Shown piece after piece: positions 46,986-50,080 of a DNA stretch of 64,000 nt. This DNA is from a virus (Duplodnaviria > Caudoviricetes). The position numbers and the translations under genes are program-made. Within the stretch, counting starts at the first letter, position 1. Each line of letters opens with the position of its first letter. Below the pieces are notes generated by a model, which did not search any database, was not told where the DNA came from, and was given only the letters and a program-made list of their open reading frames with translations. The stretch covers positions 887-64,886 of IMG/VR virus record IMGVR_UViG_2900577576_000002, one strand, 5' to 3'.

Positions 46986-47014
46986 TTGAGAACATGTTAT
47001 CTCTTTGCTAGAGT
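46986..47014 (+). promoter_or_regulatory. Promoter with an operator between -35 and -10, driving the DGR operon
   Basis: TTGAGA-17-TAGAGT; GAGAACATGTTATC at 46988-47001. Confidence 0.7.
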
Positions 47015-47065
47015 GCTCACACGCACCACAAAACCTGAGGTCAATAACCCATGAAGGGGAGAACC

Positions 47066-47674
47066 ATGAACGCAGTTGTGAACGGCATTACTGTCCCGGC
47101 CATCATCGGAACACCGTGGGAAGGCGGCTTCTATAGCGGTCTGATCACTTTCGGTGGCGATGTGTATGCGCAAGTCACCGCCGCAAAGACTGACGGCGAG
47201 CACAAGCCCGCCATCTGGCTCCTGGATTACACCGAGATCAAGGGCGCCGACAGCTTCTTCGACGGCTTGGCGAACACGAAGGGCATGGCCGAGGCCGGCA
47301 GCGAGATCGCCCAGTGGGCACTCGAGCAGCGCATTGCTGGCTTCGATGACTGGGCCATCCCTGCGCGCGATCAACTCGAACTCCAGTACCGGCACTTCAA
47401 GCCGACCACCCAGGAGAACTGGGTGTGCCGCAACGGTGACAACCCGAGCAGCCTGCCCCCGGGCTACCCGTACACGATTCACCTGCCCGGCCAGACCACG
47501 GTCGAGCTGTTCCGCGTCGGCGGCACCGAGGCCTTTGCTGCTGACTGGTACTGGTCGAGCACGCAGTACTCGGCCGACGACGCCTGGAGCCAGACCTTCA
47601 ATGGTGGCAGCCAGCACTACGCGAGCAAGGACCTCGAAGGTCGTGTCCGCCTCGTCCGCAGCATCAAGCTTTAA
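47066..47674 (+). CDS. DGR target protein 1 (DUF1566/CLec-like)
   Basis: WAIPARDQLE..WYWSSTQ; C-terminal VR1. Confidence 0.9.
   Translation: MNAVVNGITVPAIIGTPWEGGFYSGLITFGGDVYAQVTAAKTDGEHKPAIWLLDYTEIKGADSFFDGLANTKGMAEAGSEIAQWALEQRIAGFDDWAIPARDQLELQYRHFKPTTQENWVCRNGDNPSSLPPGYPYTIHLPGQTTVELFRVGGTEAFAADWYWSSTQYSADDAWSQTFNGGSQHYASKDLEGRVRLVRSIKL
47561..47658 (+). repeat. DGR variable region VR1
   Basis: 98 bp copy of TR; 12 differences, all at TR adenines. Confidence 0.97.
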
Positions 47675-47726
47675 CCCTTCATCCTTTCGACGGCCCAGAC
47701 CAACCGATCACGATCAAGAGGATCAG

Positions 47727-48317
47727 ATGAGCGAAATCACTATTCCCTTCCACGGCGGAAAGCTCGTGGTGCCCGAGAACGAAGCTGCGCGCGCGTGGCT
47801 CGACAAGGTTCTCAAGGCAACTTCCGACCAGAGTCTGCCGCGCATCAACATGCCGCCCGCACTCGGAGAGTACTGGGCCGGCGAAGGCGGCATCTTCGCC
47901 GGACTCATGCCGGACGGTAACGGTGGCCAGTATCCCCTGATCGCGTCGGTCGATGACTTCGGCCCAGCCGAATGGGGCGCCTACGGTCAGGACGAACCCG
48001 GTGCCAAGAGCGATCTCGACGGCTATGCAAACACGCGAGCGCTCATCGAGAGCAAGCACGCGCATCCGGCCGCGCAATTCGCCACCGGTTACACGAAAGA
48101 CGGTCACAGCGACTTCTTCCTGCCCGCCAAACGGCAGATCTCGCTGTGCGCGTCAACCATCCCCGAGAAGTTCGAGAAGGCTTGGTATTGGACGTCGACC
48201 CAGTCCTCGGCCGACTACGCCTGGTCCCAGTACTTCACTGTTGGCGGCCAGCTCACCGCGTACAAGAGCAACGGAGGTCGTGTCCGCCTCGTCCGCAGGT
48301 CGAACTTTAAGTTTTAA
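47727..48317 (+). CDS. DGR target protein 2 (DUF1566/CLec-like)
   Basis: GAGGA RBS; FFLPAKRQ..WYWTSTQ; C-terminal VR2. Confidence 0.9.
   Translation: MSEITIPFHGGKLVVPENEAARAWLDKVLKATSDQSLPRINMPPALGEYWAGEGGIFAGLMPDGNGGQYPLIASVDDFGPAEWGAYGQDEPGAKSDLDGYANTRALIESKHAHPAAQFATGYTKDGHSDFFLPAKRQISLCASTIPEKFEKAWYWTSTQSSADYAWSQYFTVGGQLTAYKSNGGRVRLVRRSNFKF
48201..48295 (+). repeat. DGR variable region VR2
   Basis: 95 bp copy of TR; 16 differences, all at TR adenines. Confidence 0.97.
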
Positions 48318-48326
48318 CTATTAACC

Positions 48327-48701
48327 ATGGCAGCCGCCAAAGACCTACCCGTCTACAAGGTCGCGTACGACTTGCTGGGCGTCATCCTGAGCGCGGTGCG
48401 CAACATGCCGCGCGATGTGAAGCAGCTGGTCGGGGGTCCGCTCACCAAGGAAGCGATGGACATCGTCGTCCTGATCTTCCGCGCGAACTCCACCACCAAC
48501 AAGGTGCCGTATCTGACCGATCTGCTGGAACGGATCGAAGTGATCAACCTGCTCCTGCGCCTCGCGCACGACATGAAGATGATCACGACGAAGCCGTACG
48601 CGGCAGCGATTCAGCGCACTGATATGGTCGGCAAGCAGGTAGGTGGCTGGCGGAAACAACAATCTGCATCGTCGCCCGCTGCACCACGGTCATGGCCGTG
48701 A
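48327..48701 (+). CDS. avd: DGR accessory variability determinant (four-helix bundle)
   Basis: LPVYK.AYDL..P..K..G..LLRLAHD..GKQVGGWRK; between VR and TR. Confidence 0.9.
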   Translation: MAAAKDLPVYKVAYDLLGVILSAVRNMPRDVKQLVGGPLTKEAMDIVVLIFRANSTTNKVPYLTDLLERIEVINLLLRLAHDMKMITTKPYAAAIQRTDMVGKQVGGWRKQQSASSPAAPRSWP

Positions 48702-48858
48702 TGCCTGTGCGAATTATTGATCTGGTCGCGCCGCTGCTCCACAAGGGCACCGCCATGCGCACAACAGAAACCGGCTGCCGGTGTGCGGAAAGGTCTGGCG
48801 CAGTTGCTGCACTGATCGGCTGACGCCTTCGGTGCGGTGACGTAGATAGCGCGATACG

Positions 48859-48956
48859 ACGCAGTACTCGGCCAACAACGCCTGGAACCAGAACTTCAAT
48901 GATGGCAACCAGAACAACGCGAACAAGAACAACGAAGGTCGTGTCCGCCTCGTCCG
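48859..48956 (+). repeat. DGR template region TR
   Basis: 11 AAY codons in the VR frame; GC-rich 3' tract diverging from the VRs (CGAATA vs CGCAG). Confidence 0.97.
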
Positions 48957-50080
48957 AATATCAGTGCGATGCAGAGGGCCTCCTTTCTTTCGAGGCGCTC
49001 GTACGGGCCTATTTCGACTGCCGGCGCACGAAGCGCAACACGCGCAACGCGCTGGAGTTCGAGCAGGATCTGGAGCACAACCTCGGGTGCCTGTACGGCG
49101 ATCTGTTGGATGGATCGTATCGGCCAGGCCGCTCCATCTGCTTTGTGGTCACGCGACCGAAGCCGCGTGAGGTGTGGGCGGCAGACTTCCGTGACCGCAT
49201 TGTCCACCACCTGCTGTACAACCACATCGGCGCGCGGTTCGAGGATGCGTTCATCGCGGACTCGTATGCCTGCATCAAGGGGCGTGGCACGCTTCGCGCC
49301 GCCGAGAGCCTGGAATTGATGATCCGCTCGATCACGCGGAACTGGTCCCGGCCGGCTCACTACCTGAAGTGCGATCTCTCTAACTTCTTCGTTTCAATCG
49401 ACAAGCAGATCCTGCGCGAGCTGTTGCTCGCCAAGATTCCGGAGCCGTTCTGGGCGTGGCTCACCGAGCTGGTGTTGATGCACGATCCTCGCTCCGACTT
49501 CGAGTTCCGCGGCGATCCCAAGCTGCTGGAGAAGGTGCCGCCGCACAAGCGCCTGATGGAACAGTCGGCGCACCTGGGCCTGCCGATCGGCAACCTTTCG
49601 TCGCAGTTCTTCGCCAACGTCTATCTGGATGTTCTTGACCAGCGCGCCAAGCACCAGCTGAAGGCGAAGTACTACATCCGGTACGTGGACGATTTCCTTT
49701 TCTTGGATGAGTCGCCGGCGCGTCTGAACGAGATTCTCGCCGACGTGACGGCATTCTTACTGGATCGCCTCAGCGTGCGCATCAACCCGCGCAAGACCAT
49801 CCTGCAGCCGATCGATCGTGGCGTCGATTTCGTCGGCCACGTCATCAAGCCATGGAATCGGGCGACACGAAAGCGAACGCTGAATGAAGGACTGCGCCGA
49901 GTTGGCGCTGCGCCGGCCGCTGACGTGCACGTTCTGGCCAACTCTTATTTCGGCCTGCTGCGCCAGGCATCGGCCAGTCACCACGACCGCGCCCAGCTCG
50001 CCAATGCCGTGCGCTCGCGCGGCCATGCCGTCAATCGACAACTTACCAAGGCATATCGCAAAGGGGAAAAGCAATGCTGA
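48899..50080 (+). CDS. DGR reverse transcriptase
   Basis: GLPIGNLSSQFFAN (DGR-type SQ) and YIRYVDD motifs; adjacent to TR and avd; start uncertain. Confidence 0.95.
   Translation: MMATRTTRTRTTKVVSASSEYQCDAEGLLSFEALVRAYFDCRRTKRNTRNALEFEQDLEHNLGCLYGDLLDGSYRPGRSICFVVTRPKPREVWAADFRDRIVHHLLYNHIGARFEDAFIADSYACIKGRGTLRAAESLELMIRSITRNWSRPAHYLKCDLSNFFVSIDKQILRELLLAKIPEPFWAWLTELVLMHDPRSDFEFRGDPKLLEKVPPHKRLMEQSAHLGLPIGNLSSQFFANVYLDVLDQRAKHQLKAKYYIRYVDDFLFLDESPARLNEILADVTAFLLDRLSVRINPRKTILQPIDRGVDFVGHVIKPWNRATRKRTLNEGLRRVGAAPAADVHVLANSYFGLLRQASASHHDRAQLANAVRSRGHAVNRQLTKAYRKGEKQC

Follow-up and report, generated by a model that had tools for sequence, protein, structure and literature searches.

The 64,000-nucleotide (nt) stretch of viral DNA analyzed here (the window, comprising positions 887 to 64886 of the 64.9-kb IMG/VR provirus record IMGVR_UViG_2900577576_000002) carries at positions 46986 to 50080 a complete and apparently functional diversity-generating retroelement (DGR), which belongs to a large lineage of such elements that temperate phages of Beta- and Gammaproteobacteria carry. 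The usual explanation of a DGR is that it lets tail fibers switch tropism. For the two proteins diversified by this element, we give slightly better than even odds (a probability of about 0.55) to a different use, judging from sequence comparisons: they would act off the virion and probably inside the cell, as cytoplasmic proteins that are made early and whose ligand is a variable molecule of the host or of a competitor. Speaking for an off-virion role are the occurrence of the same target pair with unrelated tail types, the position of the cassette, which adjoined tail genes at none of 15 sampled loci, and the composition of the target subfamily, which consists almost always of stand-alone proteins of ~200 amino acids (aa).

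Anatomy of the cassette and its target proteins

The element is made up, in order, of a promoter, target 1, target 2, bAvd, an RT-15 RNA, a template repeat (TR), and a reverse transcriptase (RT). An initial annotation, made from the letters of the sequence, had proposed the gene order target1-target2-avd-TR-RT, and the Pfam and PHROGs matches (Lcl_C twice, bAvd, and RVT_1) agree with it. That annotation had also called the DGR complete, and TR and variable repeat (VR) pairs, bAvd, RVT_1, and C-terminal VRs on lectin-fold targets are indeed all present. An ungapped alignment places three copies of a ~100-nt repeat in register. The adenine-rich copy is the TR (48859 to 48956, plus strand), which is 98 nt long and contains 32 adenines and 11 AAY codons in the frame of the targets. 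VR1 (47561 to 47658, plus strand) spans codons 166 to 198 of target 1 and has 12 mismatches to the TR, all 12 of them at TR adenines, as had been reported. VR2 (48198 to 48295, plus strand) spans codons 158 to 190 of target 2; the 16 mismatches at TR adenines that had been counted there were recovered, but a further G-to-C difference lies at the 5' edge (TR position 48861), and the proportion is therefore 16 of 17 rather than 16 of 16. Since adenines make up 33% of the TR, mismatches would all hit an A by chance with a probability of 1.5e-6 (VR1) or 1.7e-8 (VR2). The two VRs have only 6 mutated positions in common, with the same base at 3 of those, and because so few are shared we agree with the earlier view that VR1 and VR2 were rewritten independently. 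The estimate of 15^11 (about 9e12) variants per target from the 11 AAY codons is also correct as calculated, and counting every A-bearing TR codon raises the number of protein variants to about 1e18.

The 3'-terminal 20 nt of the TR, GGTCGTGTCCGCCTCGTCCG, are the same in the TR, VR1, and VR2. This block is GC-rich and resembles an initiation of mutagenic homing (IMH) sequence, and the copies diverge directly past it, where the VRs have CAG and the TR has AAT. A search for remote VRs found no further TR-like copy in the 64.9-kb provirus record, and there is no third DUF1566 paralog in the window; the earlier statement that the tail fiber has no VR holds for these two reasons.

The bAvd gene (48327 to 48701, plus strand; 124 aa) matches PF22296 with 50 bits (cutoff, 40) and phrog_3206, annotated as "Avd protein of DGR," with an E value of 2e-28. 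Between avd and the TR lies a feature that the first reading had missed, an RT-15 RNA (Rfam RF03018; 48670 to 48861, plus strand) that starts in the 3' end of avd and ends just inside the TR. The match is full length (model positions 1 to 192 of 192) and scores 178.4 bits (gathering score, 82; E value, 1e-44); an RT-15 RNA is likewise annotated in phage Cruim01. In the present lineage, the TR is preceded by the structured part of the DGR RNA; in Bordetella phage BPP-1, the spacer follows the TR.

The open reading frame (ORF) of the RT (48899 to 50080, plus strand; RVT_1, 58 bits) opens within the TR in a different frame, and the part conserved among homologs begins near 48980. The annotated RT genes of phages Magia and Cruim01 overlap their own TRs in a similar manner. 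The translation shows the motifs LPIGNLSSQ and YVDD and is 61 to 76% identical to the RTs of the Burkholderia phages Magia, vB_E192a, and vB_PL1 and of the Pseudomonas phages SC_8_H2H8_2017, Haboob, Cruim01, phPA-G, and LPPA56, and its nearest relatives also belong to cassettes with A-specific TR/VR pairs. The TR/VR pair, together with Avd and the close DGR relatives of the enzyme, led us to reject a defense retron or UG-type RT.

Target 1 (47066 to 47674, plus strand; 202 aa) is a stand-alone Lcl_C/DUF1566 protein, with a Pfam Lcl_C match of 36 bits (above the cutoff) and a match to phrog_4245. The start at 47051 assigned to it at first should probably be given up, the ATG there being an alternative; 47066 has a Shine-Dalgarno sequence, fits the 202-aa homologs, and is probably the start. 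Target 2 (47727 to 48317, plus strand) likewise matches Lcl_C/DUF1566 and phrog_4245 and has 196 aa, as do its homologs. The targets are only 33% identical to each other, and the pair is therefore old. AlphaFold2 models built with family alignments reached predicted local distance difference test (pLDDT) values of 92 (target 1) and 89.5 (target 2). The top match of both in the PDB was 8q4e, the C-terminal domain of Legionella Lcl, followed by C-type lectin-like proteins, and structure prediction thus bears out the C-type lectin (CLec) fold that had been expected.

The two proteins differ outside the common fold. Target 1 is a single domain with a conserved insertion of ~25 residues (RNGDNPSSLPPGYPYT...) that is not present in target 2, and target 2 consists of a beta-hairpin and helix (residues 1 to 33), a disordered linker (residues 34 to 47), and the Lcl_C-type domain. 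The N-terminal hairpin-helix of target 2 (MSEITIPFHGGKLVVP..AWLDKVL) is highly conserved. When its N-terminal 40 residues were compared with 1.84 billion representatives, the matches were on T2-type proteins only, and no domain swap that would indicate a partner was seen. Both targets are soluble, with isoelectric points of 4.8 and 6.1 and a single Cys each. The description of the targets as proteins of about 200 aa with no signal peptide and no fused fiber domain also stood, and neither of them has a lipobox. Close homologs (66 to 89% identical) of both targets vary only at the x positions of SAxxAWxQxFxxGxQxxAxKxx.

The subfamily of target 1 comprises about 980 clusters of about 200 aa versus 3 long forms, and there are no fiber-domain fusions among the 3 long-form clusters. 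One of these, P0167 (516 aa, from a metagenome), has a phage-type DHH phosphoesterase (phrog_4771; E value, 9e-110) fused to a T1-like Lcl_C domain with a VR-like motif. As DHH phosphoesterase is a cytoplasmic-type enzyme, this fusion suggests a cytoplasmic setting. No DHH homolog was found near any of the cassettes that were fetched.

Related cassettes and the setting in the phage

A locus scan using one genome per species returned 78 loci from Beta- and Gammaproteobacteria, in about 60 of which Avd and RT directly follow the target gene or genes. The same cassette is present in at least nine sequenced Burkholderia and Pseudomonas phages, where its neighbors are genes for integrase, CI/CII, recombination, and methylase functions. 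It is found in the early arm in LPPA56, Cruim01, Magia, and Haboob, flanked on one side by immunity or nucleotide-metabolism genes and on the other by methylase, recombination, and integrase genes, and the tandem target pair of Medea1 has the same early-arm placement. A tally of the PHROG assignments of flanking genes (145 ORFs around 15 cassettes from 13 genera) has integrase, CI/CII, RecE/Erf, DNA methyltransferases, and ParB at the top, and no head, tail, or lysis family is among its top 25. Early, non-tail placement was thus seen at 15 loci of 13 genera and in 5 annotated phages, across two tail morphotypes. Carriers include myoviruses (the present phage and Magia) and siphoviruses (LPPA56, which has a tape measure gene and no sheath gene). 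Electron microscopy has shown Cruim01 and Aurca01 to be siphoviruses as well (PMC11256456).

The rarity that the initial annotation had implied for this layout is not borne out: it is common, being found at about 60 of the 78 loci and in phages deposited in GenBank, and the Magia DGR was published in 2021. Two tandem targets are the commonest arrangement (39 loci), and three targets are found at 19 loci. The adenine-specific variation foreseen for related strains is likewise general, with 1945 changes at TR adenines and 83 elsewhere in 148 TR/VR pairs from the 65 loci. Across these pairs the adenine sites of AAY codons were changed in 59% of cases and those of AAG codons in 7%, and no change was seen at the A sites of CAG codons (0 of 317) or ACG codons (0 of 60). 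Such codon-specific rates show purifying selection on the scaffold, and the targets are therefore functional proteins.

Variations on the arrangement were seen in several relatives. In Ralstonia thomasii, which is the nearest genome relative, a single TR is accompanied by three VRs (locus positions 3001, 10496, 11134, and 11792), the third VR lying about 7 kb upstream of the cassette; a third target of this kind is not present in the window. In Magia, gp46 (locus positions 7909 to 8373, annotated as hypothetical) carries a VR at 8263 to 8353 with 11 mismatches, all at TR adenines, and Magia therefore has three targets and not the two named in its announcement. Medea1 gp71 and gp72 (locus positions 8268 to 9576) form a tandem DUF1566 pair that is followed directly by two DNA methyltransferases, and both Medea1 and Aurca01 retain the tandem pair without avd or RT. 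Either the cassette of Medea1 has decayed or its pair functions without being diversified.

In the present phage, the cassette had been described as standing behind an operator-overlapped promoter, and the window agrees with that description. The sole promoter-like site between 46300 and 50400 is a sigma-70-like promoter at 46986 to 47014 (plus strand; TTGAGA-17-TAGAGT with a TG extension), and a 14-bp operator-like palindrome at 46988 to 47001, GAGAACATGTTATC, covers its -35 hexamer and spacer. The palindrome (GAkAAC-NN-GTTmTC) has 15 strand-matches at about ten sites in the window (11269, 39022, 39772, 40087, 41907, 46988, 54451, 55686, 55713, and 57992), versus 0.13 expected. The sites at 39022, 39772, and 40087 surround a helix-turn-helix (HTH) repressor gene (39248 to 39955), and others precede early units, an RNA locus, and an envelope moron. 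This pattern resembles a dispersed operator system for many small transcription units. Because a palindrome of the repressor region overlies the only promoter of the cassette, the cassette is likely to be off in the lysogen and to come on together with the early genes.

The late operon, on the minus strand, includes terminase, portal, sheath, tape measure, and baseplate genes and a fiber gene at 14444 to 16189, and on this gene set the phage is a myovirus. Its lysis cassette lies at 9 to 11 kb. The DGR is instead in the plus-strand early arm (about 40 to 59.5 kb), together with a DnaD-like loader, a NinI phosphatase, a nucleoside triphosphate pyrophosphohydrolase, a resolvase, a helicase-methyltransferase, the RNA locus, and a YqaJ exonuclease. 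The earlier placement of the cassette in the early arm, away from the tail genes, was therefore right, but the distance of 30 kb given for it was not exact: the tail genes are 20 to 33 kb away, and the nearest late gene, which encodes the small terminase, is found at about 36.9 kb, some 10 kb from the cassette. The integrase gene (59716 to 60843, minus strand) adjoins a tRNA-Val gene (61013 to 61088). The tail fiber is 64% identical to Ralstonia phage fibers and target 1 is 81% identical to a protein of R. thomasii, and the host of this prophage is for that reason probably Ralstonia.

The gene or genes immediately upstream (46445 to 46969, with weak HTH matches) and the downstream gene (50074 to 51186) have counterparts at none of the 78 loci, and we therefore place them outside the module. 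A few genes downstream of the DGR is a helicase-DNA methyltransferase fusion of 836 aa (51903 to 54413; phrog_16 and phrog_67); methyltransferases are also encoded behind the cassette in Medea1, Cruim01, and Haboob and at several of the genome loci. At the other end of the window, positions 1 to 7502 hold a second plus-strand block of early type (Sak4-like, NinB, and HNH genes) that converges on the lysis end of the late operon. A repeat of the tRNA-Val attachment region, which would give the left prophage end, was not found inside the window. A tRNA-Met gene (37961 to 38035, minus strand) separates the immunity region from the beginning of the late operon.

Possible roles of the two targets

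The arrangement of the cassette suggests how it may operate. Upon infection or induction, the repressor-type palindrome over the promoter would be vacated, and a single transcript would then provide target 1, target 2, Avd, the RT-15/TR RNA, and the RT. The RT and Avd would copy the TR with adenine-specific errors, and the resulting cDNA, directed by the common GC-rich, IMH-like 3' end, would take the place of the final ~100 nt of either target gene. The 11 Asn-coded positions and a few others would in this way be randomized on the ligand-binding face of both Lcl_C/C-type-lectin-fold paralogs.

Where the targets act can be weighed from their location and architecture. An Mtd-like receptor-binding role was addressed through gene location and through domain fusions, and both tests were negative. 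It is nevertheless possible, although we would not favor it, that the targets are virion-associated accessory adhesins that sit on the tail or fiber, through the N-terminal module of target 2 or as a T1-T2 complex, and switch receptors as Mtd does, in which case the cassette would lie outside the late operon because it is a mobile module. The Lcl_C/CLec fold is the classic receptor-binding scaffold of DGRs, the conserved hairpin-helix of target 2 is carried on a flexible linker, and a global survey found viral DGR targets to be mostly tail proteins (PMC8144416). These considerations are opposed by the presence of the same target pair, at about 50% identity, in siphoviruses and myoviruses with unrelated tail tips, by the absence of tail genes next to the cassette at all 15 sampled loci, and by the lack of fiber-anchor fusions in the target 1 subfamily. 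The N-terminal module of target 2 is moreover found on no other kind of protein, and the Ralstonia phages that have the 64%-identical fiber are in neither the target nor the RT match list.

Several points nonetheless weigh against the account given above, including the off-virion, intracellular role of the targets. DUF1566/Lcl_C domains form the C-terminal tips of long phage fiber proteins, the matches in the BFVD including long tail-fiber, collagen-repeat, and S74-peptidase proteins with this domain at the end, and a receptor-binding role is therefore structurally plausible. The N-terminal module of target 2 could be a docking element, for example, to a part of the virion. A common operon with the RT is little guide to function, since the structural target of BPP-1 is also cotranscribed with avd-TR-brt. 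The DHH fusion is a single cluster and may be a merged gene call, and the palindrome would be the operator of the repressor on the distribution of the motif only. There is also no hairpin after VR1, VR2, or the TR, and no inverted repeat of at least 6 nt behind either VR. Literature searches found neither an experimental study of early-operon targets nor virion proteomics of a carrier phage.

Two other explanations appear improbable to us. The targets may be soluble lectins that are freed at lysis and act outside the cell, either by masking receptors on debris and neighboring cells or by binding surface polysaccharide, with diversification following surface variation. In favor of this explanation, the lysis cassette of the phage would set free these acidic or neutral proteins, which are soluble and have no export signal, and Lcl (8q4e), the closest solved relative of the fold, binds glycosaminoglycans. 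However, a freely diffusing protein benefits all nearby phages, so that the link between genotype and phenotype would be poor and selection for a costly DGR would be weaker. The least probable explanation is that the cassette is an inactive relic in which the VR differences are old and mutagenesis has ceased. The retention of the target pair in Medea1 and Aurca01 after the loss of avd and RT speaks for it, but here all four ORFs are intact, the RT has the SQ and YVDD motifs, the RT-15 RNA is full length at 178 bits, the TR retains its 11 AAY codons, and the IMH-like 3' ends are identical in the TR and both VRs.

If the targets do act within the cell, as we are inclined to believe, their use can be suggested only tentatively. 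One possible but doubtful proposal is that a hypervariable library of cytoplasmic binders serves the phage as an "adaptive" counterdefense or host-takeover module, in which the two paralogs, one bare and one with a conserved N-terminal docking module, would recognize fast-evolving host immunity proteins or proteins of rival phages. Intracellular action, if true, would make these the first phage-encoded hypervariable intracellular binders and would offer a natural scaffold for the evolution of binders in vivo. The large and easily cultured lineage to which the cassette belongs, with its Ralstonia, Burkholderia, and Pseudomonas phages and isolates such as Magia, Cruim01, and LPPA56, places the targets among early genes in siphoviruses and myoviruses alike. 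The locus described here is one clean added member, with a readable promoter predicted to be operator controlled.

Comparison with known systems

The element is typical of a DGR lineage that is common and has already been deposited and in part published. The DGR of the Burkholderia cenocepacia phage Magia (MT701587) was reported in 2021, with targets described as "relatively short reading frames" (PMC7883833). Magia and the other relatives in the RT clade share with the present cassette the small lectin-fold targets followed by Avd, TR, and RT, the location in the early or immunity arm, and the A-specific mismatches. The targets of Magia are, however, 120 to 154 aa long and include the remote third one, whereas those described here are about 200 aa and of the Pseudomonas/Ralstonia T1/T2 type; the host here is probably Ralstonia, and the promoter has a recognizable operator-like copy. 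The same components in the same order are known from BPP-1 (mtd-avd-TR-brt), as are a C-terminal VR on a CLec fold, adenine mutagenesis, and the AAY design. BPP-1 differs in diversifying one trimeric tail-tip protein of 381 aa that is encoded among the tail genes, in contrast to two stand-alone early-arm proteins of about 200 aa, and its RT is only distantly similar; the present cassette also has an RT-15 RNA upstream of the TR and no hairpin behind its VRs.

The global survey of DGRs kept viral "tail" targets apart from "unknown" or nonstructural ones and left the latter unresolved (PMC8144416). DUF1566 "CLec2" targets, such as LdtA of Legionella, form category d of Wu et al. 2018 (PMC5758913). 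LdtA of Legionella pneumophila resembles the present targets in having its VR within a DUF1566/Lcl_C-type domain but is an exported surface lipoprotein encoded on a genomic island, whereas the targets here are phage early proteins without a lipobox or signal peptide. Intracellular DGR targets reportedly exist in cellular genomes, with Vallota-Eastman (2020) and Dore et al. (2024) said to describe cyanobacterial signaling proteins and STAND-type putative antigen sensors. Those targets are a precedent for diversified CLec domains that act in the cytoplasm, although they are multidomain proteins with effector or signaling domains and the targets described here are bare, phage-encoded binding domains. 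A counterdefense role for such binders, were it to apply, would mirror the DGR-diversified sensors proposed for bacterial immunity.

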